NCBI GenBank assembly: GCA_001825155.1
Contig: MHVH01000005.1
Location: forward strand, 168,501 to 232,500
Origin: Candidatus Zambryskibacteria bacterium RIFCSPHIGHO2_01_FULL_46_25
GTDB lineage: Bacteria > Patescibacteriota > Minisyncoccia > Phycocordibacterales > Zambryskibacteraceae
Length of the DNA: 64,000 nucleotides
Reading direction: 5' to 3'
Positions 1 through 55,041 of this stretch are shown here, piece after piece. The translations under genes were made by a program, and so were the position numbers. Within the stretch, counting starts at the first letter, position 1. Each line of letters begins with the position of its first letter. Under the pieces are notes generated by a model, which was not told the DNA's origin, ran no database searches, and saw nothing but the letters and a program-made list of their open reading frames with translations.

Positions 1-338
1 ATTAGTTTATATGTTTTTTTTATATATTCAGAAATATCACGAATTTCCGGAGAGTCTGAACCAGCGCAAGTTATTTTGAAAGTTTTAAACTCATCCTCGT
101 TACCTGCAATGACTGCCTCAATAAGACAGCCCAAAATAGACTTGTGATTTGAAATATAAAGTGGATTGTATTTGGTATCTTGTGACACAACATAGGCACG
201 AGCTACGCTCCTCAACTCCCTAACCTCATCCAAATTTGATACATAGTCTAAATAGATAGAATCTCCAACTTCTCTTCGTACGTGAAAAACTTTCTTTTTA
301 TTAATCTCATTTAGAACAATACTACGTAAACCCGTCAC
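1..338 (-). CDS. partial ORF (3' part; GTG start near 336-338; runs off the window start), hypothetical, possibly glycosyltransferase-related
   Basis: Open frame on the minus strand from the GTG at 336-338 to the window edge, with no stop; manual translation VTGLRSIVLNEINKKK...ITCAGSDSPEIRDIS. Confidence 0.3.
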   Translation of the reverse strand, partial: MTGLRSIVLNEINKKKVFHVRREVGDSIYLDYVSNLDEVRELRSVARAYVVSQDTKYNPLYISNHKSILGCLIEAVIAGNEDEFKTFKITCAGSDSPEIRDISEYIKKTYKL

Positions 339-348
339 GTAGGATAGT

Positions 349-2061
349 TTAATTTCTAGATTTAATTCTTTCATACCCATTCTTAATTTGATCAAAGGCA
401 TCAGAAACTCGTATTCTGTCCATGCAAAATTCTTCACAGCACGTAATCTCCTCTTGCCTTGAACTATGTTTGCACAATTTATGCCTATCTTTGTCATATA
501 ATGGTACCATGTATTCTGAAGTATGTAAATATTTAGGGTCAGTCGCACCGAATATAACAAATGAGCTCTTATTGAAGCTCTGGGCAATTACTGCTGGCCC
601 AGAGTCATTTCCGATAATAAATTTACAATGTTTAATAAGCGACATCATTTCGCTGAATGAGTAAGACTTCTCAAGTATTATGCATTTAACTTTAAACTCT
701 TTTTCAAGCAATTTTGCTAACTGAAGAAACTTATCGTAACCCCAATTTCTCTTTTTCTCCTCCCACCAACTGGTAGAAGGGGCAATGAGAATATACTCGT
801 CCTTAATAATTCTATTCCACTCATCATTCAAGGTTGGAATATCATTCATCTCAATGTCACCAAAACCAACTGATTCCATGTATCCTTGAATATATGTCTT
901 ATGGTTGTCACTTAACTCGTGTACCAGCCTGATGAAAGCATCACACTTTATCTGGTTCGAAATTAAGTCATTGTAATCGTATATATGGGTATAAGTGCCT
1001 AGTAGTTGCCCGGCGTCTGTAATCTTGGTTGCCAAGGAAATGGTATCGCTAAATTTTAATAGAAATTTAGCAACAGGCTCTGTCATTATCACATCACCCA
1101 GATGTCCACTCCTGACAAGGCAAATTGACTTAATCTGTCCCTTTTCAATCTTTCTCCTCAGATACTGACTGTGCCATTTGACCAATTTAGTATCGTAGAT
1201 AAATCTATCCTCTGGTATAAGAGTTCCCCAAAATGTTCTGTGTTCCGAAAACCATCTTTTTCTTATCTCGTCCACATTATTTTTAAATTCATCAACATAT
1301 TTTCTAATGGTTTCTATTCTCTCCATCCATGGTGCGTCCGAATCAGAGGTTGAGTCATTTTCGAATTCAGCAAGCTTCTTCCACTTTTTATATATTTCCT
1401 CCGGTTTTCCGCGAAATTCAAAATGTAAAAGCTTAGCCTCACTTGCGGGCACAATAAAAGGGTTCCAGTGATAATTACCAAAAAAATCTTTGTTGTTCTC
1501 AGTTCTTACATAATGGCCTCCCACCACGATTTCCATACGATCATGATTTTTAACAATAGCTTTTCTAAAATGACCGTATTCCTGCCATGGTTTTTCTGGC
1601 CACGGATAATAGTATTTTGTTGTATCTATTGGATTTACTGGTGAGCATGTAAAATCATTAAAAGTGTAATCAAATAAGGCGTTTGCCCACCCAATTGTTG
1701 CATAAGGAATTTTCTTGTCCTCTAGGCGATCTATAAAATCGTGTATATCTTTTTCTTTGATTGAAAAAAACTCGTCGACATCCAGAAATATAAACCAGTC
1801 TATCTCGTAGTTATCTTTTGCATACTTTAAGAGCTTATTAGCAATTCTTGCATGATCAAATACGGGATTCTCCTCATTGATGATTACTACCCGAGAATTA
1901 TTTTTATATTTGTCGAAAATCTCTTTGGTTCCATCTGTAGAGCAGTGATCAGCAATAAAAATGTAATCAAACCCGAGGTCTAGATGATAGGAAATATTTA
2001 AATCAGCATATAACTCCTCATTTCGTACCGACATCAGTATCGCAACACTGCTTCTTCTCAT
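349..2061 (-). CDS. two-domain glycosyltransferase: N-terminal GT2-like (nucleotide-diphospho-sugar transferase) plus C-terminal GT9/heptosyltransferase-like
   Basis: 570-aa ORF; N-terminus DHCSTDGTKEIFDKY...FLDVDEFF is GT2-like; C-terminus GHLGDVIMTEPV...GNDSGPAVIAQSF is heptosyltransferase-like. Confidence 0.6.
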   Translation of the reverse strand: MRRSSVAILMSVRNEELYADLNISYHLDLGFDYIFIADHCSTDGTKEIFDKYKNNSRVVIINEENPVFDHARIANKLLKYAKDNYEIDWFIFLDVDEFFSIKEKDIHDFIDRLEDKKIPYATIGWANALFDYTFNDFTCSPVNPIDTTKYYYPWPEKPWQEYGHFRKAIVKNHDRMEIVVGGHYVRTENNKDFFGNYHWNPFIVPASEAKLLHFEFRGKPEEIYKKWKKLAEFENDSTSDSDAPWMERIETIRKYVDEFKNNVDEIRKRWFSEHRTFWGTLIPEDRFIYDTKLVKWHSQYLRRKIEKGQIKSICLVRSGHLGDVIMTEPVAKFLLKFSDTISLATKITDAGQLLGTYTHIYDYNDLISNQIKCDAFIRLVHELSDNHKTYIQGYMESVGFGDIEMNDIPTLNDEWNRIIKDEYILIAPSTSWWEEKKRNWGYDKFLQLAKLLEKEFKVKCIILEKSYSFSEMMSLIKHCKFIIGNDSGPAVIAQSFNKSSFVIFGATDPKYLHTSEYMVPLYDKDRHKLCKHSSRQEEITCCEEFCMDRIRVSDAFDQIKNGYERIKSRN

Positions 2062-2100
2062 TGCCTAACTATATCATTTATGGTCGAATTTTAATACTGG

Positions 2101-2847
2101 CTACTTCAAAAGGTCATCGAGGTAATGTTTGAATTTATAAAATGCCGGATGATCAGGGTAGACAGCATGGAACATTGTAACTTCATCCAAATCTTCGATA
2201 TCAGCATTTTCGTTTGGACCAATTAACATATATTTTTCTTTCGGGAAAATATATAATTCGCCATTTATCGAATACCTAGTCAGAGCAATTGCTAGTGCTC
2301 CCTGCTCATCATGGTGGGTTTGATTATCTTTAGATATGTTCTTTTTCCACCAATTTAATTCTTCTGACAAATCTTGAGAAATGTTATAACCTGCTTTTTG
2401 TATAAAGAGACCAGCATTTACAAAGGGAGTTTGTTTGTCAGCTTTTTGCTGCATAGCCCCATACTGCCACAGCTGACCGAAAAACTCATCCATAATACCG
2501 AACTTTGATTTCGAGTCCTTGATGAAATCGTCAATTTCTTTTGGGTATCTCAATAAAAATACATCCGAGTCAATATAGACCTCCGTTTCATTTACATCTA
2601 TTCTCGGGCTTGGACACCACTTTTTCCATGTAGCAACAGAATCAATATCATACTCACTAACGATGTTGGTAAAATCTAGCACTTCAGCAATTCCGTTGAA
2701 TTTGTTCATCCAGTCACTTGGTGAATCTGTATAGATGACATATCTGTGTTTATTACCAAATTGCTTTTTGAAAGACAAAATACTATACCTAAGTAAATCT
2801 AGGTTTTTTTCTTTATATTGACCCCATATACTCCATCTAAATATCAT
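2101..2847 (-). CDS. hypothetical protein in glycosyltransferase cluster
   Basis: 248-aa ORF, same strand, tightly packed with neighbours. Confidence 0.35.
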   Translation of the reverse strand: MIFRWSIWGQYKEKNLDLLRYSILSFKKQFGNKHRYVIYTDSPSDWMNKFNGIAEVLDFTNIVSEYDIDSVATWKKWCPSPRIDVNETEVYIDSDVFLLRYPKEIDDFIKDSKSKFGIMDEFFGQLWQYGAMQQKADKQTPFVNAGLFIQKAGYNISQDLSEELNWWKKNISKDNQTHHDEQGALAIALTRYSINGELYIFPKEKYMLIGPNENADIEDLDEVTMFHAVYPDHPAFYKFKHYLDDLLK

Positions 2848-3590
2848 TTTATTTTAGGAAAATGTTTAGGTTTCCACTGCTTTCTTTTAGTATTATTATA
2901 TTTTGAATACATTTCGAATATCTTTCTTTGATCTGGTCTTTCAATAAGCCATTTATCAATATTGGTGTAATATCCATGAAAACCAAATTGATCTTTATAG
3001 TTATCATCGCCGCCCTCGAATGCAAATCTTCTTGCTAATTCTACATCAGCGAATTCTATTCCTCTTTTTATAAAAAGATCTCTGTACCATACACTGAACG
3101 CTATGTCTTCTGGATGAAAATATGGAATCTCACTTGATTTAAATAATTCTGCCGATACTTCTAAGAATTTCCTGCTCCTTATACAAAAACCTCCATTACC
3201 AACCACTCTTCTCCCTCTCCAGTTTTCAGGAAACCCAAAATCATTAATTGACCAATCTTTTACAACCCATGGTGCACCAATATAATCATAATTTAGAAAC
3301 TCATTGGTCCAACTATTTGGGTTTAAGATGAATCCATCCCATTGAACCAGTAAAACAAATTCTGTATCAACGTAGTCTTTTAAGTCACTTAAACAGAACT
3401 GCGAATATTGCTCATGAGAAGCAATCTCTTTTATTTTAATTAATCTATGATCTTCAACATCCTTTGAAGTAAGCAGCTTGGATTTTGCAAAAGTAATTTT
3501 TTCTTCGCACAAATTCATTACTTCCTGTAGCTTAGCTGGGTCGACACAATCAATCCCTAGCAAAGTAACTTTATCTAACTTTAATTTCAT
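2844..3590 (-). CDS. hypothetical protein in glycosyltransferase cluster
   Basis: 248-aa ORF overlapping the downstream gene by 4 nt (operon-like). Confidence 0.35.
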   Translation of the reverse strand: MKLKLDKVTLLGIDCVDPAKLQEVMNLCEEKITFAKSKLLTSKDVEDHRLIKIKEIASHEQYSQFCLSDLKDYVDTEFVLLVQWDGFILNPNSWTNEFLNYDYIGAPWVVKDWSINDFGFPENWRGRRVVGNGGFCIRSRKFLEVSAELFKSSEIPYFHPEDIAFSVWYRDLFIKRGIEFADVELARRFAFEGGDDNYKDQFGFHGYYTNIDKWLIERPDQRKIFEMYSKYNNTKRKQWKPKHFPKIK

Positions 3591-3610
3591 ATAATCGGAG
3601 TGCGTATAAT

Positions 3611-4891
3611 CTATTTGAGATTCTTCACAAGAAAATCCCTCATAATTACCGGAAAATCAAATCTGCCAATCGTGTTTGTGTTTTTATCAATAATTTCTCT
3701 CTTTGTGTTCTGATCCAATTTGGCTGTGGTGATTATTTTTTGTGAAAACAGTTCGATATCATTTGGATCAACGTATACAGACTCATCCTCACTAAATGCA
3801 TCAACTGCGCCATCAACCTCACTAATTATAGTTACAAAATTCATATCTCTTGAAAACAACTTGGCCTCAATTGAGGTGTGTGGGAATGGATCCATTATTG
3901 ATGGTATACATACAATATCTGTATTTTCATTTCTTAATACGGTTTTCCATATATCTGGATTGAAATCATCAATGATGATAGATCTAGGTGTATCTGAAAG
4001 AATGCTTCGGACTTCGGAGAAGTAATTCGATTCACCAGAATTATTTGGCATTTGTAAAATAAGATAGTGATTTGGCAACTGTTGAGCCGACATTTTCCAT
4101 GCCTGAGCAAGCTCTCTGAAACCTTTAGCGACCGAGCACCTTCCCCAAGAAAAAATAATCTTTGCATCTCGTTCGATATTTATATCAAATTTTTCTAAAT
4201 CAGAGTTTGTAAATTTCCTGCTAAGATAGTTGTCGTATCTACTAAAAAATAATCCATTTTGAAGAAAATCATCTTTTGAGAAAAATAATCCATAATCATT
4301 ATGCATTCTCTCAGCGAACTTTTTTCCTAAAGAAATGACCTTCGAGTCTTTATCTTTGAAGGCTAGGTCAAAACACTCTTGCTCAACCCTAATTCTATTT
4401 TCTCTCCAAACCTGATCTCCAAAAGCATGATTTTTGCCAGTACTTAATGGGAAATAAAAATACTTAACTTTTTTGCTGTTAACCAAATCTTTATATTTAG
4501 CAAAGAATAAAAAGGGAGTGTCATTTAAAATGATATAACTCTCCTCATCAGGGTTTAGAATAATATTTAGAGCAGTAACAAGGGAGGAGCATGTGTAATT
4601 CCATTCATTAAAACTTCTCCACATATCCCACTCACTTTCTCCTTTGGTCGAATTACATAGTGGCAACATGGCGCCTCCAGTTTCTGAAGTAAGTTTATTT
4701 GCCTTATCAAAACACTCTTTGTTAAACACTTTTGAACCCTGGTCTACATTGATATAAGCAATACTTACCTTCAAATCGAACTCATCAGCAAGTTCACCTA
4801 AAGCATCCACAAAATTTTTTGCAATTGTTCCAACTCCAGAATAATGCGTACCTATGCCGTCATATGTAGCTATAATTAGATGTTTCTTCAT
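3611..4891 (-). CDS. putative glycosyltransferase (GT1/GT4-like) / hypothetical
   Basis: 426-aa ORF; N-terminus IIATYDGIGTHYSGVGTIAKNF resembles the Rossmann-like start of GT-B enzymes. Confidence 0.4.
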   Translation of the reverse strand: MKKHLIIATYDGIGTHYSGVGTIAKNFVDALGELADEFDLKVSIAYINVDQGSKVFNKECFDKANKLTSETGGAMLPLCNSTKGESEWDMWRSFNEWNYTCSSLVTALNIILNPDEESYIILNDTPFLFFAKYKDLVNSKKVKYFYFPLSTGKNHAFGDQVWRENRIRVEQECFDLAFKDKDSKVISLGKKFAERMHNDYGLFFSKDDFLQNGLFFSRYDNYLSRKFTNSDLEKFDINIERDAKIIFSWGRCSVAKGFRELAQAWKMSAQQLPNHYLILQMPNNSGESNYFSEVRSILSDTPRSIIIDDFNPDIWKTVLRNENTDIVCIPSIMDPFPHTSIEAKLFSRDMNFVTIISEVDGAVDAFSEDESVYVDPNDIELFSQKIITTAKLDQNTKREIIDKNTNTIGRFDFPVIMRDFLVKNLK

Positions 4892-4959
4892 ATATTTCAG
4901 CTGGACTTAATTTCTAATAGAAGTGGCGAGTGATCTGATATCGGCTCATTAGTGATATT

Positions 4960-5330
4960 TAAAATACCACTCTTTTCAGAGTTTAGGAAGTACTGTGCCG
5001 ATGCTCTTCGGTCATCGTGTACAAGGTGGCTGGTTGGCAAGGTAGAGAAACTGTTCTCTTTTGCCCTAACGGCTCAGCAAGCTGAGCCGTTGGAAAACTA
5101 GACTTTCCGCTCATTCCATTCAAAAAAGTCTTATCACCGCCAACACTGAAAGTATGATAGCGGAAAGGCTGAGGAAGCGCTGTGCGCTTCCGAAGGGCCT
5201 TGAGCACCGAAGGTGCGAAAGGTGTACGGCGTCTGTAAGACGAGAGGCACGAGCACGCCCGCAGGGCGTGCGAGTTAGTTAGAATCAAGAATTTTTGATA
5301 AAGTAGGTTCGAGCAGACTCGTATAGAGCC
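4960..5330 (+). other. structured non-coding region of unknown family; ends in a tRNA-3'-like GGTTCGA...AGAGCCACCA
   Basis: About 370 nt without a credible ORF and dense in hairpins (GCACCttcgGTGC, GCACGCCCgcaGGGCGTGC, AACGGCTCAGCaagcTGAGCCGTT); its 3' end resembles the 3' half of tRNA-Leu; strand uncertain. Confidence 0.2.
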
Positions 5331-5422
5331 ACCATAGATGGGATAAAGCCCAATTCGGATAATTCGGATTTGGCTTGGCTGATGAAAACCCAAGGAATTT
5401 CGGGCACGGCGCGCGCTTCGCG
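5331..5422. repeat. left copy of a perfect 92-bp inverted repeat (partner 8581-8672); diverged similarity continues to about 5480
   Basis: Manual reverse-complement alignment gives 92/92 identity; begins with ACCA immediately after the tRNA-like 3' end. Confidence 0.9.
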
Positions 5423-5827
5423 CGAGTGGAGGTGTAGGTTCATAAAATTCAAAGCCAAAATATTTTCTGGAGGTTGATTTTAATACAAGGGTTCTGGGAG
5501 GTCGTACTTTTTAGTATGTGCTTGCCCCACCCGCCCGTGCGCGCACAAATTCTGCTCCCCTTAATGACATTCTCCATTTTACAACACTGATTATTCCTCC
5601 TGTCTTCTTGAAAAATCCTTATTTTATGATAGTTTATCGTCAGTGGCGATTCGTTCGCCACCAGAGTGCTCAACGGGAGAAGTTTGTTTACTCAAATTAC
5701 TCACAATGACGCACTCGCAACATTCAAGTAAGAAAGAAAGTTTTACTTTCCTTCCGAAAGGTGTTATCCTTAGTAGCGAGGCTGACCCAGCGTCGGCCTC
5801 GACTCCTAAGGGTACCGGTCCAAGTGG

Positions 5828-7084
5828 TTGTATGTTGGTTCGACTCCAACGGGATCGTCTATTGAAAAACATCTCAATTTACATTCAGTTTTCTCCTATT
5901 CAGAGTTTGGAAAAGCTTTTAACAAGCTAAAGAAAAAGAACAAATATAGGCAGACATCTGCAGATTTTAATTTAAAAGACCGATATTCCGACAAAAGAAT
6001 TCTAAACGCCCTAGGGAAATTCATACAGAAACATTCGAGCGATCAGGCAAGAGGATTGTATAGAGAAGTAGAAATCTACTCTCTTAGGCCATATAGGGGA
6101 ATTTCGATTTTAAAAAAGAGCGGGAAATATCGCCCACTTCTTGTTCCCTCTCCTTTGGATAGATTGGTATTTTTAACTGCGCTTCCAAGAATAAAAGGGT
6201 TGATTTATAAGAGACTTTTGAAATTTTCTGCTTTAGGGGTAGGCGTTAAGAGTGAGGAGGGATTAAAAATTACCATTGTATCTAATAAAATATTTGAAAA
6301 GGTTAAGCAGAAGAAAACGAGATATGTCCTTGCCTTAGATTTCCAGGACTTTTTCTCAACTATTCACAGAGATAAGCTGCACAGAAAACTTAAAACTATT
6401 TTTTCAAAAGCTGAAGAAAAAGAACTTTTGAAACTTTTAGTCTTGTCGATAAATAATCCTATAGAATCAGATGATCTTTTTAAAGCAAAATTTAAGAATC
6501 TTAATCTCGAGACAAGCGGAATTCCTCAAGGACTAGCGTACTCTCCATTACTAGCTAGTTTCTTTGCTACAAGTCTGGACGCCTTAGTGAGAAGAAACAA
6601 GTCAGTAATCTCGTACCGTTATTTAGATGATATGGTAATCATAGGGCCAAACAAAAGAAATCTTATAAAAATCTATAGAAAAATAAAAAGTTTTTCAGCT
6701 AAATTGGGTCTGAAGCTCCACGACCTTGGCGGAAAGACAAAAATATTACCAGTTATAAATCCCGATGATTCTTTCGATTTTCTCGGCATCTCTTTTTCTA
6801 AATCAGGTAAGCATATTACCAATCAAGCTATTAAGAAGTTTTTAGAAACCATAAAGACAGAAATCCTTACTGGGCGAGGATTAAGAACTTCTCCAGATAA
6901 TATCAAGAGGGTTTTTAAAGAATATGTCACTGGATGGAAACAATACTACTCGGCCATCTGCCCAGAGCACTATAAGGAAATAGCCCCAATTTTAGCAAAT
7001 GAAGTTCGTACTTATATGCTGAAAAAGAAAGCTTGGAAAAGGATATACCTAAGTGATGAAAATTTGTTTAACTTGAAGGAGTGA
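5828..7084 (+). CDS. reverse transcriptase (group II intron/retron-like prokaryotic RT; no intron RNA domains recognised)
   Basis: RT motifs RPLLVPSPLDRLV (RT2), LDFQDFFSTI (RT3), GIPQGLAYSPLLAS (RT4), YRYLDDMVII (RT5, YxDD), and thumb motif YVTGWKQYY; ORF opens with TTG, true start uncertain. Confidence 0.75.
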   Translation: MYVGSTPTGSSIEKHLNLHSVFSYSEFGKAFNKLKKKNKYRQTSADFNLKDRYSDKRILNALGKFIQKHSSDQARGLYREVEIYSLRPYRGISILKKSGKYRPLLVPSPLDRLVFLTALPRIKGLIYKRLLKFSALGVGVKSEEGLKITIVSNKIFEKVKQKKTRYVLALDFQDFFSTIHRDKLHRKLKTIFSKAEEKELLKLLVLSINNPIESDDLFKAKFKNLNLETSGIPQGLAYSPLLASFFATSLDALVRRNKSVISYRYLDDMVIIGPNKRNLIKIYRKIKSFSAKLGLKLHDLGGKTKILPVINPDDSFDFLGISFSKSGKHITNQAIKKFLETIKTEILTGRGLRTSPDNIKRVFKEYVTGWKQYYSAICPEHYKEIAPILANEVRTYMLKKKAWKRIYLSDENLFNLKE

Positions 7085-7191
7085 TATAATAAACTCGCAC
7101 TCAACCGATAATAAGTTGTCTTTTTAAATGGCCGTCTCGGGTCAGCTTAAGGCAACTTAGGTTGAGTGCACCGGGGCGGCCATTTAAGTTT

Positions 7192-8721
7192 ATGAAATAC
7201 TTTTTATACGTTAGAAAATCCACCGATGTTGAAGACAAGCAAGTGCTTTCTATTGAAGCGCAGCTTTCGGAATTGAGAACTATTGCTAAACATGATGAGC
7301 TAGAAATCGTAGAGGAGTTTATAGAAAAGCGAAGTGCAAAAGTTCCAGGCAGATCAATTTTTGAAGAAATGCTCCGCCGGATTGAAAAGGACGAAGCCGA
7401 AGGAATTATTTGCTGGAAAGTAGATAGACTTTCCAGAAATCCTGTAGACAGCGGACGTATCAGTTGGATGCTTCAGCAAAACATCATTCAAAAAGTTATC
7501 ACACACGATAGAGTTTATCTCCCGCAAGACAATGTGCTTATTATGTCTGTAGAGTTCGGGATGGCTAATCAATACATCAGAGATTTGAGTGTAAATACCA
7601 AACGAGGTTTAAGAGCCAAAGCCAGACAAGGTATTTACCCCAGTGTTGCGCCCCTAGGATATTTAAATGATGTAAGGAGTAAGACGATAGTTATAGATAG
7701 GAAGAAAAGCCTTATAGTCCGTAAAGCATTTGAGATGTATGCGGAAAATAAATATAACCAAGAAGATATAGCCAACTTTCTTTTCAAGAATGGTATTCAA
7801 AGCAGATTAATAAGAAGACCAGACGCAACTGGCGGTAAGCCCTTGAAGAGAGACCAGATTAAGTGGATCTTAGAAAGCCCTTTTTATTATGGAAACTTCT
7901 ACTATGCTGGCGAAGTTTGGGAAGGAAAACACAAACCCTTAATTTCAAAAAAGCTCTGGGATAAAGTCCAAGAAGTTTTGAAATTAAGAGGAAGGGTAAA
8001 GAAAGTTAAGACAGAACCTAAAGCATTTTCCGGACTTCTTTATTGTGGAGAATGTGGCTGTTCTATTACTGCCGAAAGACAAAAGGGACATATTTATTAT
8101 CGTTGCACCAAAAAGAAAGGTAAATGCTCACAGCCCTTTACTAGAGAGGAAGTTTTAGACTCCCAACTTTCGGCAATACTAACTTCCTTAGTATTGCCGA
8201 GTGAATGGGCTAAAGAATTAAATAAGATGTTGGATAAAGACGAAGCGGACATCACTCAATCCGCGACGGCGTCCGTCCAAGCTCTGCGGTCAGATGCGAT
8301 GGAGATAAACTCCAAGCTTGCCCGCATTACAGACCTCTTTGTGGAACAAGACATTGAGCGTGGAGAATACCTGGATAGGAAGAAAGCTCTAATGTCTCAA
8401 AAGAAGTCTGTAGAGGAACAAATCCTCTTACTTGAACGAGACGCTGCTAGATGGCTCGAACCGATGCGAGAATGGCTAAAGGTGGCTTCTAGCCTAGCTG
8501 AAGCCGCGCAATCGAACGACCTCCCCTCCAGAAAATCATACCTCCAGAAAATCTTTGGCTCGAACCTCACACTCCACTCACGCGAAGCGCGCGCCGTGCC
8601 CGAAATTCCTTGGGTTTTCATCAGCCAAGCCAAATCCGAATTATCCGAATTGGGCTTTATCCCATCTATGGTGGGTCAGGTGGGAATCGAACCCACATCC
8701 GCAGAGCGGACAACATTTTAA
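7192..8721 (+). CDS. large serine recombinase (resolvase/invertase N-domain, recombinase domain, zinc ribbon); ORF reads through the inverted repeat into tRNA-Leu
   Basis: MKYFLYVRKSTDVEDKQVLSIEAQ with catalytic-Ser context; zinc ribbon CGECGCS...YYRCTKKKGKC; ORF track starts at TTG 7162, ATG at 7192 is preferred; last ~50 aa are encoded by the inverted repeat and tRNA. Confidence 0.8.
   Translation: MKYFLYVRKSTDVEDKQVLSIEAQLSELRTIAKHDELEIVEEFIEKRSAKVPGRSIFEEMLRRIEKDEAEGIICWKVDRLSRNPVDSGRISWMLQQNIIQKVITHDRVYLPQDNVLIMSVEFGMANQYIRDLSVNTKRGLRAKARQGIYPSVAPLGYLNDVRSKTIVIDRKKSLIVRKAFEMYAENKYNQEDIANFLFKNGIQSRLIRRPDATGGKPLKRDQIKWILESPFYYGNFYYAGEVWEGKHKPLISKKLWDKVQEVLKLRGRVKKVKTEPKAFSGLLYCGECGCSITAERQKGHIYYRCTKKKGKCSQPFTREEVLDSQLSAILTSLVLPSEWAKELNKMLDKDEADITQSATASVQALRSDAMEINSKLARITDLFVEQDIERGEYLDRKKALMSQKKSVEEQILLLERDAARWLEPMREWLKVASSLAEAAQSNDLPSRKSYLQKIFGSNLTLHSREARAVPEIPWVFISQAKSELSELGFIPSMVGQVGIEPTSAERTTF
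8581..8672. repeat. right copy of the perfect 92-bp inverted repeat (partner 5331-5422); extended similarity to about 8490
   Basis: Exact reverse complement of 5331-5422; lies within the recombinase 3' coding region and ends at the CCA of tRNA-Leu. Confidence 0.9.
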
Positions 8722-8754
8722 GTGTTGCGCGTATACCTATTCCGCCACTGACCC
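8669..8754 (-). tRNA. tRNA-Leu (anticodon TAA), CCA encoded
   Basis: Manual cloverleaf: acceptor GGGTCAG/CTGACCC, anticodon arm CAACA-CTTAAAA-TGTTG, long variable arm, T-arm GGGTTCGATTCCC. Confidence 0.85.
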
Positions 8755-8756
8755 AG

Positions 8757-8829
8757 AGGCGTAGAGGGGAATCGAACCCCTGCAATAACAGTTTTGCAGA
8801 CTGTCGCGTTACCACTTCGCCACTACGCC
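8757..8829 (-). tRNA. tRNA-Cys (anticodon GCA)
   Basis: Acceptor GGCGTAG/CTACGCC, anticodon loop CTGCAAA, T-arm GGGGTTCGATTCCCC. Confidence 0.8.
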
Positions 8830-8900
8830 AAAACCACTATTACCATACCATAAAATGTTGAAAAACGGTTCGATTAATGAGATACTATGCTTTGTTTGTT

Positions 8901-8973
8901 GCGCCCATAGCTCAGCTGGTAGAGCAGATCCCTCTTAAGGATAAGGTCCAAGGTTCGATCCCTTGTGGGCGCA
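8901..8973 (+). tRNA. tRNA-Lys (anticodon CTT)
   Basis: Acceptor GCGCCCA/TGGGCGC, D-arm GCTCAGCTGGTAGAGC, anticodon loop CTCTTAA, T-arm CAAGGTTCGATCCCTTG. Confidence 0.8.
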
Positions 8974-8977
8974 CAAT

Positions 8978-9059
8978 GCCGAGGTGGCGAAATTGGCAGA
9001 CGCGCCAGCTTTAGGAGCTGGTACCGCAAGGTGTGGAGGTTCAAGTCCTCTCCTCGGCA
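8978..9059 (+). tRNA. tRNA-Leu (anticodon TAG)
   Basis: Acceptor GCCGAGG/CCTCGGC, anticodon arm CCAGC-TTTAGGA-GCTGG, long variable arm, T-arm GGAGGTTCAAGTCCTCT. Confidence 0.85.
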
Positions 9060-9089
9060 CACTGCATTTATGAAGAAAGAAAAATAAAC

Positions 9090-10973
9090 ATGCTAGAAGG
9101 AACAATACGCGTAACCGGCAAGGGTGTCGGCTATTTTGAGGACCCGCAAGGCGGAGACGACTTCGAAATACAGCCGGAGAATCTTAAGGCCGCCTTAAAC
9201 CGCGATACCGTAATCGTCGAACCTACCGGCAAAGAAATTTATGGTCGGAAACAGGCCAAAGTGGTCGAGATTCTCGAGCGCCACAAGACGGAATTCGTCG
9301 GCACTTTCGATGATGGCTTCATGATTCCGGATGATAAGCGGATGTACCGAGACATCTTTGTCGAGGATCCTAAGGGAGCAAAAAATGGCGACAAGATACA
9401 AGTCCATCTCACGTCCTGGGAAGACCCTTCCAAAAGCCCCAAGGGCGAGATACTCCGCGTCATTGGGCGCGCCGGCGAGCACAATGCCGAGATGGTCGGC
9501 ATTGTTTTGGAAAGTGGATTCGAAATCGACTTCCCTCCCGAAGTGGAAAGCGAAGCCGAGGCTTGGAAGGAAAGATATGAAAAGGAGGATAAGCTCAAGA
9601 ATCGGCGTGACTTTAGTGAAGTCACGACCTTCACCATCGACCCGGCGGACGCCAAGGACTTCGACGACGCTATTTCTTTGAAAAAACTTGAGAACGGTGA
9701 TTATGAAATCGGCGTGCATATCGCCGACGTATCCCACTTCGTTACTCCCGGCACAGCGCTTGACAAAGAAGCGGTAAAAAGAGGCACGTCCATCTACCTC
9801 GTCGACCGCACCATTCCCATGCTTCCGGAAGTGCTTAGTAACGACCTTTGCTCGCTTAATCCCAACGAACCCAAATATGCCTTCTCCGCCGTCTTCGTCA
9901 TGGATAAGAATGCGAAGGTGAAGGACCGCTGGTTCGGCAAAACTCTTATCGAGTCGGATAAAAGATTTACCTACGAAGAAGCGCAGGAAATATTGGATAA
10001 AAAGTCCGGAACATATTACGAAGAATTGAAAACCTTAAACGACCTGGCCTACAAACTTCGCGAAGAGAAGTTCAGGAAGGGCGCCATTGAATTCGAAACC
10101 GAGGAAGTGAAGTTCGAGCTCGACGAGCTCGGCAAGCCCATACGCGTATACAAGAAGGAACGCAAGGACACGCACAAACTGGTGGAAGATTTCATGCTCC
10201 TCGCAAATCGAGAGGTGGCGACACACATGCATACGGCATACAAAAGCAATGCGCGCGCCGCTTTTGTCTATCGCATACACGACGCTCCGGACAGAGAAAA
10301 AATCGTGAATCTTGCCACGTTTGTAAAAGCACTTGGCTTCGAACTCAAGAACAGGGACGGCGAGACTACGGCGGAAGATATTACAAAGATGCTCAAGTCA
10401 GTCGAAGGCACTCCGACAGAAATGTTGGTAAAAACTGCCGCCATCCGCTCCATGAGCAAGGCCATTTACTCAACCAGTAATATCGGCCACTTCGGTCTGG
10501 CATTTGAATATTATACTCACTTCACCTCCCCCATCCGCCGATATCCCGACCTTATGGTGCATCGTCTACTTCAGCGCTTCATCGAGCAGGGGCAAATTGA
10601 GCAGGACGAGATTATCAAATACCAGAGACTCTGCGACGACTCTTCTGAGCGCGAGATGGAAGCGGCCGAGGCGGAGCGCGCATCTATCAAGTACAAGCAA
10701 GTAGAGTACATGCAGGAGCACGTGGGCGAAGAATTCGACGCTATCATCTCCGGCGTCTCGGAGTGGGGCATTTATGTAGAAGAAGTGAATACCAAGGCTG
10801 AAGGTATGGTCAAGCTCCGTGATATGAAAGACGATTTTTATGAATTAAATGAGAAGCTCTACGCCATCGTCGGTCAGAAATCCGGCAAGAAATACTCCCT
10901 CGGCGATAAAGTCCGCGTCAAACTCATCGCCTCAGATCCAGAGAGAAAGACTCTTGACTTTGCATTTGTTTAG
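9090..10973 (+). CDS. rnr: ribonuclease R (VacB/RNase II family 3'-5' exoribonuclease)
   Basis: RNB-domain motifs HFGLAFEYYTHFTSPIRRYPDLMVHR, C-terminal S1-like domain; start moved to ATG 9090 to avoid overlap with tRNA-Leu. Confidence 0.85.
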   Translation: MLEGTIRVTGKGVGYFEDPQGGDDFEIQPENLKAALNRDTVIVEPTGKEIYGRKQAKVVEILERHKTEFVGTFDDGFMIPDDKRMYRDIFVEDPKGAKNGDKIQVHLTSWEDPSKSPKGEILRVIGRAGEHNAEMVGIVLESGFEIDFPPEVESEAEAWKERYEKEDKLKNRRDFSEVTTFTIDPADAKDFDDAISLKKLENGDYEIGVHIADVSHFVTPGTALDKEAVKRGTSIYLVDRTIPMLPEVLSNDLCSLNPNEPKYAFSAVFVMDKNAKVKDRWFGKTLIESDKRFTYEEAQEILDKKSGTYYEELKTLNDLAYKLREEKFRKGAIEFETEEVKFELDELGKPIRVYKKERKDTHKLVEDFMLLANREVATHMHTAYKSNARAAFVYRIHDAPDREKIVNLATFVKALGFELKNRDGETTAEDITKMLKSVEGTPTEMLVKTAAIRSMSKAIYSTSNIGHFGLAFEYYTHFTSPIRRYPDLMVHRLLQRFIEQGQIEQDEIIKYQRLCDDSSEREMEAAEAERASIKYKQVEYMQEHVGEEFDAIISGVSEWGIYVEEVNTKAEGMVKLRDMKDDFYELNEKLYAIVGQKSGKKYSLGDKVRVKLIASDPERKTLDFAFV

Positions 10974-10998
10974 TTATATGATTTAAGAGGAGGGGTTC

Positions 10999-11208
10999 AT
11001 GAAAAAGCAGTTGACGAGCATCTTTGCGCTGTCTCTCTTCTCCCTGACCTTTCCTCTCGTGTTGATTTGCGCATTTTTCTACGGCGCAATGTGGGGGAAT
11101 TTCACGTTCAACTACGACGAGGAGAGGGGGCGAGAAGCGATCCAGAATCTGTTTCTCAACCCTTGCGGGAAGATCATTTCCTGGGGTTGGGATAAGGTCG
11201 CAGCGTAA
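10999..11208 (+). CDS. small hydrophobic hypothetical protein
   Basis: 69-aa ORF with strong RBS AGAGGAGGGG 6 nt upstream; N-terminal hydrophobic segment. Confidence 0.4.
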   Translation: MKKQLTSIFALSLFSLTFPLVLICAFFYGAMWGNFTFNYDEERGREAIQNLFLNPCGKIISWGWDKVAA

Positions 11209-11230
11209 TCCATTGCTCCGCCAATCTCAC

Positions 11231-11260
11231 CGCCGGCGCGCACGCGCCGGCGGCTTTCAT
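11231..11260 (+). terminator. GC-rich hairpin, probable rho-independent terminator
   Basis: CGCCGGCGCG-cac-GCGCCGGCGG followed by CTTTCATT. Confidence 0.4.
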
Positions 11261-11303
11261 TACAAATTTTAACAAACCTTCCACTCTAACTGAACCTCTC
11301 CCC

Positions 11304-11337
11304 CCATTATTTTCCAGCTATAGCGTAGAAATAATGG
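11304..11337. repeat. quasi-palindromic ~34-bp repeat, copy 1 (partner 11908-11941), just downstream of the PaaX-like gene
   Basis: CCATTATTTTCCAGCTATAGCGTAGAAATAATGG versus CCATTATTTTCTAGCTATAGCTTAATTATAATGG; direct repeats, each with palindromic ends CCATTAT/ATAATGG and core AGCTATAGC. Confidence 0.85.
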
Positions 11338-11344
11338 GGATGAC

Positions 11345-11911
11345 TTATATAAGGTCGAAATCCATTCTTAAATATTTATCATTCTCTATTTGATCAGCGA
11401 TGATGTAGAGCATATTCTTCCCTATCCCATAATTGGTCTTGAGGAGTCCGATGACATCTTCGCAATCATAAGGATAAACCCAGACGCTGTCCTGTAGTCT
11501 TAAAAAACCCGACGATTTGAGTATCTCCCTCACCTCGTCTCTCACTTTCTTCATCTTTTCCGGAATATCGAAAATTATGATCCTCCATTTTCTATCCCAT
11601 CTTTTTGGCTTAGGAATTCTATAATCATCCATTTCCCATTGGCGAAGAACCTTTTCTCCATCCGTTGTGAGAAAATATTTCCCACTTTTAAATTCCACCA
11701 ATCCTTTCCTTCTCAGGCGCGAAACCGCGGAGTATATAATATCTTTCTTTCTAGAAGATATTGGAATATCCAGATCAAGAAAATAATTCAGAACACTCGG
11801 CAAAAGGTCCGAGGAGCCCCTTCTGCCTCCAGAAGCTATCGAGACAAGAATCGCCTCCTGAACTTTCGATTTATTTATGGACTTCCTGGCTTTTCTTTCT
11901 AGCTCTCCCAT
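11345..11911 (-). CDS. PaaX-family regulator-like protein (N-terminal wHTH plus C-terminal Cas2-like/PaaX_C domain), paralog 1
   Basis: WRIIIFDIPEKMKKVRDEVREILKSSGFLRLQDSVWVYP matches the PaaX C-domain / Cas2-like pattern; 60-70% identical in the C-terminal half to ORF 22404-22976. Confidence 0.7.
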   Translation of the reverse strand: MGELERKARKSINKSKVQEAILVSIASGGRRGSSDLLPSVLNYFLDLDIPISSRKKDIIYSAVSRLRRKGLVEFKSGKYFLTTDGEKVLRQWEMDDYRIPKPKRWDRKWRIIIFDIPEKMKKVRDEVREILKSSGFLRLQDSVWVYPYDCEDVIGLLKTNYGIGKNMLYIIADQIENDKYLRMDFDLI

Positions 11912-54965: not shown

Positions 54966-55041
54966 TGGTGCGCGGTGCAGAACTCGAATCTGCGACCCTC
55001 CCCACGTCAAGGGGATGCTCTACCAACTGAGCTAACCGCGC
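54966..55041 (-). tRNA. tRNA-Val (anticodon GAC), CCA encoded
   Basis: GCGCGGTTAGCTCAGTTGGTAGAGCATCCCCTTGACGTGGGGAGGGTCGCAGATTCGAGTTCTGCACCGCGCACCA. Confidence 0.85.

Follow-up and report, generated by a model that had tools for sequence, protein, structure and literature searches.

A reverse transcriptase with a tRNA-tagged RNA inside the integrase module of a tRNA-Leu island in a Parcubacteria genome

In a 64-kb stretch of the genome of Candidatus Zambryskibacteria bacterium RIFCSPHIGHO2_01_FULL_46_25 (contig MHVH01000005.1; the whole stretch is referred to below as the window), a gene for a reverse transcriptase (RT) lies directly upstream of a gene for a large serine recombinase (LSR), and both are enclosed by one long inverted repeat that ends at a tRNA-Leu gene. 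The locus raises the question of whether the two enzymes make up a single element or have met there as two separable things. An earlier note on this DNA had taken the pair for one new architecture, and its claims were assessed against the 64-kb window together with related public loci, labelled L001–L136. The RT-LSR region is the tRNA-proximal end of an island of about 18 kb integrated in the tRNA-Leu gene of a Parcubacteria genome (Candidate Phyla Radiation, CPR), and it is a coincidence that RT and recombinase, which are separable, share one bracket of inverted repeats. It is likely that the locus is composite and consists of the integrase module of the island and an independent cassette of the RT with a non-coding RNA (ncRNA). 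Neither is an exact match to any described family, and the sequence features of the locus are real and go beyond chance.

The extent of the island follows from base composition and from other assemblies. In the profile of guanine and cytosine (GC) content, the value is about 0.35 from position 1 to about 8200 and about 0.49 across the remaining window, so that the step near 8200 makes the RT-LSR region the edge of a foreign island extending past the left end of the window. The chromosomal anchor is a tRNA-Leu(taa) gene with encoded CCA at 8669–8754 on the minus strand. The DNA to the left was reached through a glycosyltransferase encoded in the window, which led to contigs L131 and L132. The cargo continues for about 9.2 kb past the left window end and is present entirely in L131 (6945–21029), and the island measures about 17.9 kb from tRNA-Leu to the distal copy of a repeated element, Z, described below. 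The RT has a 100%-identical counterpart in the Parcubacteria group bacterium GW2011_GWB1_49_7 (CPR). The proposal of a tRNA-targeting integrative element thus holds for the tRNA-anchored island, but the RT is a passenger in it.

The LSR is encoded at 7192–8721 on the plus strand (509 amino acids from ATG). It had been described as a large serine recombinase with a zinc ribbon, and Pfam found the three domains in the order Resolvase, Recombinase and Zn_ribbon_recom (PF00239, 9.2e-20; PF07508, 1.6e-14; PF13408, 4.6e-12), with a match to the 'integrase' family phrog_95 at 4.7e-76. Judging from the N-terminus MKYFLY.RKST, which agrees with homologues and with public gene calls, the gene most likely starts at ATG 7192 and not at TTG 7162. 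The proposed TTG starts of the two open reading frames (ORFs) are probably both wrong, as the RT homologues also start 11–16 codons past TTG 5828. The conserved protein core of the LSR ends at ...GSNxTLH; the final ~45 codons of the gene, which show no conservation, come from the repeat arm and the complement of the tRNA. Since this arm-encoded tail is unconserved as protein, the arm is a DNA-level feature; the gene stops at the attachment junction, and its ORF consequently crosses about 100 nt of arm DNA into the tRNA-Leu complement. A tRNA 3' end directly adjoins that of the LSR gene in the window (Leu), in L078 (Glu), in L002 and L092 (Ser) and in L031 (Asn), and likewise in L010 and L094 (Glu), L134, L135 and L136. 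The enzyme is very probably the integrase of the island. Its CPR clade is very large, with more than 4,259 proteins at E<=1e-60 and more than 120 clusters at >=57% identity.

In these respects the locus resembles the LSR genomic islands and prophages of the phiC31/Bxb1/TP901 type (nearest named models XisF and Ccr), which likewise have an LSR of three domains encoded at the edge of the island, a junction at a tRNA 3' end and a cargo of foreign composition. The half-sites of ordinary LSR attachment (att) sites are about 20–25 bp long. Unlike in ordinary LSR islands, the LSR stands here in a bracket formed by its 3' arm and an inverted copy of that arm (90–170 nt, 76–100% identity), and a second inverted pair, Z (170–260 nt), brackets the cargo.

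The arms of the window were located by repeat search at 5326–5441 and 8562–8677 (116 nt, 95% identity), and base-by-base comparison gave a perfect core of 94 nt at 5329–5422 and 8581–8674. The perfect inverted repeat of 92 bp reported before (5331–5422 and 8581–8672) is real, though 2 nt short of the true run. The diverged similarity said to continue for about 70 nt inward comes down to one shifted block of 17 nt (5458–5474 and 8540–8556), while ungapped identity past 5441 is at background. The arm sequence occurs twice in the 64-kb window, with 0 occurrences expected by chance, and a common genome-wide repeat was rejected on this count. The repeat enters the 3' end of tRNA-Leu by 6 perfect nucleotides, or by 9 with one mismatch; the right copy does lie at the encoded CCA, with the LSR frame reading through the repeat into the tRNA, as had been claimed. 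The left arm holds an inverted copy of the ~38 C-terminal codons of the LSR together with 6–9 nt of a tRNA-type 3' end, its other strand encoding a copy of LSR residues 468–505, and contains a GC palindrome at 5408–5424. The sequence before it, earlier called a degenerate tRNA 3' end, is tRNA-like indeed, but it is the 3' end of the conserved element Z and not a stray tRNA fragment.

The copy of Z in the window (5040–5334, plus strand) is GC-rich, contains several hairpins (fold z = -4.9) and ends with ...GTAGGTTCGAGCAGACTCGTATAGAGCCACCA. Its part at 5117–5332 is repeated in inverted orientation 14 kb to the left, outside the window, with 99.5% identity over 216 nt (L131 21029–21244); this distal copy was predicted from the pairs in L078 and L005 and then found in L131. 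Apart from L131, inverted Z pairs bracket the cargo in L078 (257 nt, 98%), L005 (218 nt, 98%) and L136 (173 nt, 85%). Homologues of Z also follow the LSR in L001 and occur in L134, and the upstream arm copy is preceded by a GC-rich Z in all cases with enough sequence. The 3' end of Z mimics the last nucleotides of the partner tRNA, both in the window (...GCCACCA versus ...CCCACCA) and in L078 (...CGTCACA versus ...GGTCACA).

Repeats bracketing the LSR were found in five lineages, and the RT lies inside the bracket only in the window, at tRNA-Leu(taa) (116 nt, 95%, of which 94 nt perfect). The complete Paceibacterota genome L078 carries an 89-nt repeat (98%) which begins 9 nt inside tRNA-Glu and encodes the C-terminus of the LSR as in the window, while the RT stands outside the bracket, 3.3 kb away. 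There is no RT in L134 (tRNA-Leu(taa); 149 nt, 77%), L135 (tRNA-Glu; 104 nt, 76%) or L136 (tRNA-Leu(cag); 170 nt, 93%). As the layout is identical in these three loci without an RT and in L078 with the RT elsewhere, the inverted repeat belongs with the family of LSR elements and not with the RT. From the tRNA outward, these islands share the order tRNA and arm, LSR module, inverted arm with Z, cargo, second Z in inverted orientation and host DNA. Three sites composed of a tRNA-like 3' end and its downstream DNA thereby delimit two adjacent segments, each of them bounded by an inverted repeat.

It might be objected that the inverted repeat has no function and is the remnant of a second, head-to-head LSR copy or an accidental inverted duplication, its perfection being due to recent gene conversion. 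The left arm is in fact a fragment of LSR coding sequence without ORF context, the arm identity ranges from 76% to 100% between lineages, and the mosaic breakpoints of two contigs discussed below (L088 and L089) resemble homologous recombination. However, an arm copy upstream of the LSR module and beside Z recurs in five lineages whose LSRs are 38–85% identical and which sit at different tRNAs (Leu-taa, Leu-cag and Glu), and the repeat always ends at a tRNA-type 3' end. Furthermore, the copies within one genome are far more alike than those between genomes, which implies ongoing exchange over long times. A repeat without function is rather unlikely, and the arms are treated here as a part of the LSR element.

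Among the RT-less relatives, the related genome in L134 has an 85%-identical LSR at the same tRNA-Leu(taa)/RNase R site and the same Z/arm layout (6762–11564). Its module contains an IS110 transposase, an HNH protein and a toxin-antitoxin-like pair of the HTH-SocA (Panacea) type, and no RT. Several islands carry a further GC-rich non-coding stretch of about 500 nt before the distal Z, here called Y (L131 20510–21244, L078 10054–10892, L005 5089–5849). Y is kept in blocks across islands of Parcubacteria, Paceibacterota and Saccharibacteria, and one block of 50 nt is identical in L078 and L005 despite island proteins only 33–43% identical. The window has only a 50-nt echo of it (5507–5555), and Y was not found in viral contigs. 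Y may be a large structured RNA. Neither Z nor Y had an Rfam match even at E<=10 or was called as transfer-messenger RNA (tmRNA) by ARAGORN, and RNase P RNA and tmRNA were also rejected for both by eye for want of resemblance.

The relation of the RT to the integrase was compared over the RT-family loci with enough flank. The LSR is adjacent to the RT on the same strand in the window and L001, lies 1.7–1.9 kb downstream in L010 and L031, is convergent with the RT in L006 and L028 and stands upstream in divergent orientation in L002, L005 and L078, whereas L007, L018 and L019 have a tyrosine recombinase in place of the LSR. The L018 island, for example, sits at tRNA-Ser and has a tyrosine integrase and an HTH_17 protein, the RT being followed by an Mrr-type nuclease. 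RT and LSR do not form a conserved unit, since the type, distance and orientation of the integrase vary, since more than 4,259 LSR relatives stand against about 30 RT clusters, and since the layout exists without an RT. The idea of RT and recombinase as one new conserved architecture was not upheld, their adjacency being kept only in the closest relative L001, while in 8 other family loci the LSR has another distance and orientation; the co-conservation on which the earlier note had itself made the pairing depend is largely lacking elsewhere.

A trace of how the two came together is found between the left arm and the RT. A stretch of LSR-module backbone at 5446–5560 is kept in the RT-less L134, where 5446–5526 is matched with 89% identity (L134 7099–7179), and it follows that the RT cassette (~5560–7190) was inserted into a pre-existing LSR module. 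Within the backbone, 5507–5555 resembles the start of Y, with a 52-nt match to L131 20548–20597. The cassette, which comprises a possible promoter, the ncRNA, the RT gene and a hairpin, is here an independent cargo unit inside the LSR module. The hairpin is long and stable and lies directly 5' of the LSR start codon (7126–7185, plus strand; -44 kcal/mol, z = -6.7). It is conserved in L001 with compensatory changes in the apical stem, which confirms the spacer hairpin proposed between RT and recombinase.

The opposite explanation makes RT and LSR one retro-integrating element, in which the RT would copy an RNA from a tRNA-like end or a tRNA CCA end and the LSR would insert the double-stranded copy beside a tRNA. 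The module is bounded by inverted repeats, RT and LSR are neighbours both in the window and in L001, and a tRNA-like module stands immediately 5' of the RT ORF as in the Neurospora retroplasmid. Moreover, the junction lies exactly past an encoded CCA, which only 2/7 tRNA genes of the window possess (Leu-taa and Val; the tRNA genes of the window lie at 8669–9060, 54966–55041 and 58599–58820). The layout of RT and LSR also recalls the eukaryotic DIRS elements, which have inverted terminal repeats. Yet the repeat-bracketed LSR layout is also found without an RT, the RT occurs with tyrosine integrases and at varied distance and orientation from LSRs, and each genome found has one RT locus. The junction tRNAs of L078 and of L134, where the gene is also tRNA-Leu(taa), lack an encoded CCA, and no complement of the tRNA-like 3' end that could serve as a primer-binding site occurs anywhere in the window. 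The encoded CCA was accordingly dropped as a sign of an RNA intermediate, all the more because tRNA-Val has it too, and a retroplasmid-like or DIRS-like retroelement was rejected because the obligate linkage of RT and recombinase was not found. Retro-integration by the pair is very unlikely, and the reading as an integrase module with a separate RT cassette is preferred.

The RT itself is encoded at 5828–7084 on the plus strand. It had been recognized as a prokaryotic RT with YLDD, which is confirmed by the RVT_1 match (E=2.9e-23) and by YLDD at 6620. The real start is probably near 5861, just past the tRNA-like module, given that TTG 5828 lies inside the tRNA-like RNA and that homologues start 11–16 codons later; the first ~11 codons are missing in most homologues, and residues 1–11 of the structural model have a predicted local distance difference test (pLDDT) value of 33. 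A word-indexed search gave 28 relatives, nearly all from CPR, followed by group II intron RTs at ~25% identity. In a profile search against 1.84 billion representatives, ~14 clusters scored above 370 bits and ~18 at 200–305 bits, with a continuous tail at <=170. The family is tiny (~30 clusters), CPR-restricted and apparently undescribed, and no description of the RT-ncRNA family was found in the literature searched. An origin from phages was rejected because there is no close relative in IMG/VR, where the best match has 29% identity over a part of the protein.

By sequence, the RT stands at much the same distance from Cas6-RT-Cas1, from group II intron RTs and from G2L4 (~80 bits each with PDB profiles). 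The AlphaFold model (pLDDT 86.8) is closest in Foldseek to the GsI-IIC group II intron RT (6ar1) and to G2L4 (9d4s), with template-modelling (TM) scores of 0.65–0.70. The thumb has a maturase-like GW..Y motif, and the RT motifs are intact and conserved over the 28 sequences. These features, with a best NCBIfam match to the group II intron RT/maturase model TIGR04416 (127 bits) and a weak GIIM match (20.4 bits against a threshold of 23), could suggest a degraded group II intron that landed beside the integrase. However, the TIGR04416 score is far under its cut-off of 300, and Rfam searches of the window (E<=1) and of 18 related loci turned up no group II domain (D1–D4, DV/DVI), as the earlier note had stated of DV/DVI for the RT of the window. 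The flanking RNA is instead a conserved ncRNA of ~130–220 nt with a tRNA-like end, present on the 5' side only, the motifs of the RT are not degraded, and a single RT locus is found per genome. A degraded intron is scarcely credible. A sequence and fold nearest to group II RTs, together with the lack of intron RNA, are what is expected of a free-standing group II-like (G2L) RT, and the protein shares with G2L (e.g., G2L4) and group II intron RTs its size, the GW..Y thumb and the lack of an endonuclease domain. Unlike G2L RTs, it is preceded by an ncRNA of its own that ends like a tRNA, is restricted to CPR and resides on mobile islands.

A known defence RT system, either DRT10/UG17 or a retron, is another candidate. 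In PADLOC, RT_UG17 ranks first (104 bits, covering part of the profile), ahead of UG4 and Drt3a, and a pair of ncRNA and RT is known from DRT2, DRT9 and DRT10. Group II-type matches are, however, as strong or stronger, and in sequence and fold the RT is closest to group II, G2L and CRISPR-associated RTs. DRT10 has three parts, including an SLATT effector with the ncRNA upstream of that effector's gene, and no neighbouring gene had an SLATT domain in any of the loci whose genes carry Pfam annotation. Of the NCBIfam retron models, one gave 54 bits (cut-off 235) and the other 19 bits (cut-off 450), and the Drt scores were likewise far below their cut-offs. A retron was rejected on these scores and on an ncRNA made of a hairpin and a tRNA-like module, and DRT2 and DRT3 were rejected on their scores. 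Membership in one of these systems is very improbable, slightly more so than retro-integration. Retrons, DRT2, DRT9 and DRT10 do share with the RT cassette a structured conserved ncRNA directly 5' of the RT, often among defence genes on mobile islands, but the RT here belongs to another clade, its ncRNA ends in a mimic of the acceptor and T-arm or of a full cloverleaf, and no conserved effector accompanies it. Of the earlier suggestion of an RT-based defence or retron-like module with an ncRNA, the ncRNA stands and is tRNA-ended, while the retron models score far too low.

The RNA lies at 5640–5860 on the plus strand (~220 nt, the 5' end being an estimate). It comprises a hairpin at 5643–5661, the P1 hairpin at 5768–5811 and a tRNA-like module at 5816–5857, in which an acceptor-like stem (5816–5821 with 5852–5857) encloses a D-loop-like part (5822–5833) and a T-arm with the loop TTCGACT (5834–5850). 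The last of these is the T-arm-like hairpin noted over the RT start, and it is real. A possible promoter, TTGAAA-16-TAGTTT, was read by eye at 5608–5635 on the plus strand; a scan for promoters and terminators gave nothing above chance. In essentially every locus of the family, a conserved RNA ending with GGTTCGAnTCC stands 5' of the RT. The structure over 19 loci consists of a long P1 hairpin and then a 6-bp acceptor-like stem, inside which lie a D-loop-like GTGG stretch and a T-arm of 6 bp.

This structure is well supported by covariation. Overall, 88% of the cells are paired compared with 70% in shuffles; the acceptor-like stem is paired in 100% and the T-arm in 95.6%, and compensatory changes occur in 11/12 pairs (RNAalifold and pair counts). 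The covariation score is 0.596 versus 0.266 in shuffles, and controls with shifted register reached <=0.20. A covariance model found the RNA in 19/19 loci, always directly 5' of the RT, and matched nothing else in the window and none of the control loci to which it was applied; the structured ncRNA with a tRNA-like end, proposed as a companion of the RT, was thus substantiated. No Rfam family matches it. The region 5539–5874 is 90.8% identical to L001, whereas the RT proteins are 69% identical, so that the RNA is under stronger constraint than the protein. That RT and ncRNA form a functional pair is highly probable.

In a third subtype (L008, L010 and L029–L032; e.g., L010 3179–3251 and L031 762–839), the RNA forms a full cloverleaf, recognized as tRNA by Rfam (36–47 bits) and by ARAGORN. 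It has a textbook sigma-70 promoter (TTGACA-N17-TAAACT), a 5' hairpin and then the cloverleaf, which has odd anticodon loops such as the 4-nt 'aatt' and ends about 10 nt 5' of the RT start codon. LOOT RNA (Rfam RF03000, 69–83 bits) was detected in four RT-bearing islands, L002 (3366–3485, minus strand), L010 (5559–5680, minus), L018 (1886–2006, plus) and L019 (4925–5047, minus), at 0.4–1.4 kb from the integrase gene, of the serine and tyrosine types alike. LOOT may be a component of CPR integrative islands.

The spacing of 8–25 nt between the tRNA-like module and the RT start codon suggests how the pair could be expressed. The tRNA-like end would be cut by tRNA-processing enzymes, and RNase P, RNase Z and the CCA-adding enzyme could plausibly act on it; a stable ncRNA and an almost leaderless RT mRNA would be left. 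This ncRNA would then probably serve the RT as template and/or primer, as the analogy with retrons, with DRTs and with the retroplasmid RT of Neurospora suggests. Bacterial RTs that stand alone and have an ncRNA of their own (retrons, DRT2, DRT9 and DRT10) have repeatedly revealed unexpected mechanisms of DNA synthesis. In the Mauriceville and Varkud mitochondrial retroplasmids of Neurospora, the RT ORF likewise lies just downstream of a tRNA-like structure; these are fungal mitochondrial plasmids that replicate via RNA, unlike the chromosomal RT considered here with one locus per genome found. The retroplasmid RT recognizes a 3' tRNA-like structure with CCA and switches templates to tRNAs (PMC8363836). 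By this analogy the RT family could be the first bacterial counterpart of the retroplasmid principle, with host enzymes processing the ncRNA and adding its CCA tail and with the complementary DNA (cDNA) made by the RT serving defence or maintenance of the island, which is a tentative and on balance doubtful extension. That such cDNA would be handed to the neighbouring integrase is hardly to be expected. Most likely the RT is a cassette with an accessory or defence role that works from an RNA template. Of the two parts of the locus, the RT with its tRNA-like ncRNA has more novelty and lends itself more directly to tests, and the RNA-protein pair of ~1.6 kb is concrete and clonable for asking what the tRNA mimic does for the RT.

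The inverted repeats raise the further question of whether the segments between them invert. For the cargo, an inversion was documented: L132, which comes from another sample, and L131 are 100% identical over 14 kb, with the cargo flipped relative to the flanking TPR gene, and the opposite orientations in two public assemblies mean that inversion across the Z pair occurs in nature. The polymorphic segment is L131 6730–21244 versus L132 6261–20764, the window at 1–5332 being its right-hand part, and the genes in it include glycosyltransferases, methyltransferases, AAA_15 and HTH. For the LSR module, the 3' arm of the LSR in L001 runs straight into the reverse complement of Z, opposite to the window, so that the RT-LSR segment of the window is inverted relative to Z in comparison with its nearest relative. 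In addition, contig L087 (k=141) has the diagnostic base of the right arm and continues from the LSR arm into 5 nt of Z instead of the tRNA; there are hints that its end reflects the flipped state of the module. An alternative LSR tail ending with ...SMVALYESARTYFIKNS, which would mark the inverted state, was looked for and is absent from the five members of the 90% cluster. The earlier idea of a recombinase-invertible segment keeps its ground in so far as the repeats are recombinase-associated and the neighbouring pair inverts, but for the module that it concerned only L001 and L087 speak for inversion.

The arm and Z repeats would be recombination sites of the LSR, or else would be held identical by recombination between the copies, and the three sites with tRNA-like ends would be the LSR substrates. 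The free form may be a circle in which two inverted Z+arm repeats part the module from the cargo. Integration of one Z/arm site into a tRNA 3' end would give the order seen in the window, and integration through the other site, or inversion, that of L001. The junction of the window contains the self-complementary dinucleotide TA (CCACCA-TA-GATGGG), and that of L078 contains AT. As the arms are mutually reverse-complementary, any 2-bp crossover that they share must be self-complementary. A self-complementary 2-bp crossover in serine integrases removes the control of orientation, and TA at the junction would permit recombination in either orientation.

Among known inversion systems, those of the Hin/Gin/Cin invertases and of yeast 2-micron FLP/FRT likewise have a recombinase gene in or beside a segment bounded by inverted repeats, with both orientations of one segment found in nature. 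As in the 2-micron plasmid, the layout can be permuted into a circle in which two inverted repeats part two unique regions, although no free circle was seen here. In a switch of the Hin/Gin type, a small serine invertase acts on short inverted sites of ~26 bp. This type of switch was rejected, because the enzyme here is a 509-aa LSR, neither a small invertase nor FLP, and the repeats are 94–260 nt, much longer than hix/gix sites; nor has an enhancer been recognized. A flip-flop element resembling 2-micron, with a large serine integrase working on orientation-neutral sites, may be what the island family represents. Arm and Z form a recurring design in CPR bacteria, which could mean that large serine integrases also serve as invertases; such use, if true, would bear on the variation of surface glycosylation and restriction genes in tiny genomes.

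Several points weigh against this picture of the locus and lower its probability. For inversion of the LSR module, the evidence consists of the between-species comparison with L001 and of the 5 terminal nucleotides of contig L087. Contig L088 is 100% identical to the window over 5192–8570 and then diverges abruptly (33 mismatches in the final 100 nt), and L089 matches 5192–8512 with one mismatch before a similar break, its arm resembling that of L001. The breakpoints at 8513 and 8571 lie at the inner edge of the arm and not at the tRNA/arm junction, where the crossover was modelled, so the pattern is more like homologous recombination. RecA-dependent exchange between identical repeats of 90–260 nt would be an equally simple source of inversions, and as far as the contigs allow a judgement it would account for the breakpoints of L088 and L089 better than LSR action. 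Whether the LSR itself drives the inversions is evenly balanced. Neither a free circular form nor an empty tRNA-Leu site was found, no replication gene is evident in the cargo, and the distant LSR relatives in viral contigs (32–36% identity) have no such repeats. On the side of the RT, no conserved effector gene stands beside it across the family loci and no cDNA product is known. A role of the cassette in defence, to which only the neighbouring genes point (restriction-modification genes, Mrr_cat and AAA_15 near RT loci), falls a little short of an even chance.

Contigs of other samples with an identical RT and LSR core carry three versions of the LSR 3' arm, in L088 (3380–3480), L089 (3320–3428) and L090. 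The last has 4 single-nucleotide polymorphisms clustered at 8519–8573, within a region equivalent to 8513–8671 of the window, which is a hotspot of exchange in the population. Positions 1–17 of L090 are a remnant of an Illumina adapter (CGACGCTCTTCCGATCT), and this contig end is artefactual. Contig starts at 5192 were considered as a sign of heterogeneity and rejected: many contigs with an identical RT begin there, the Z repeat ends k-1 (140 nt) further on, and a k=141 assembler ordinarily behaves in this way at a repeat.

The part of the distal cargo within the window (1–4891, minus strand) consists of glycosyltransferase and DUF5672 genes, according to the GC profile and to Pfam on the called genes. 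A second GC dip (0.39 versus ~0.49) occurs at 56001–58000, beside the tRNA-Glu and tRNA-Ser genes at 58.6–58.8 kb, and may be another small island.

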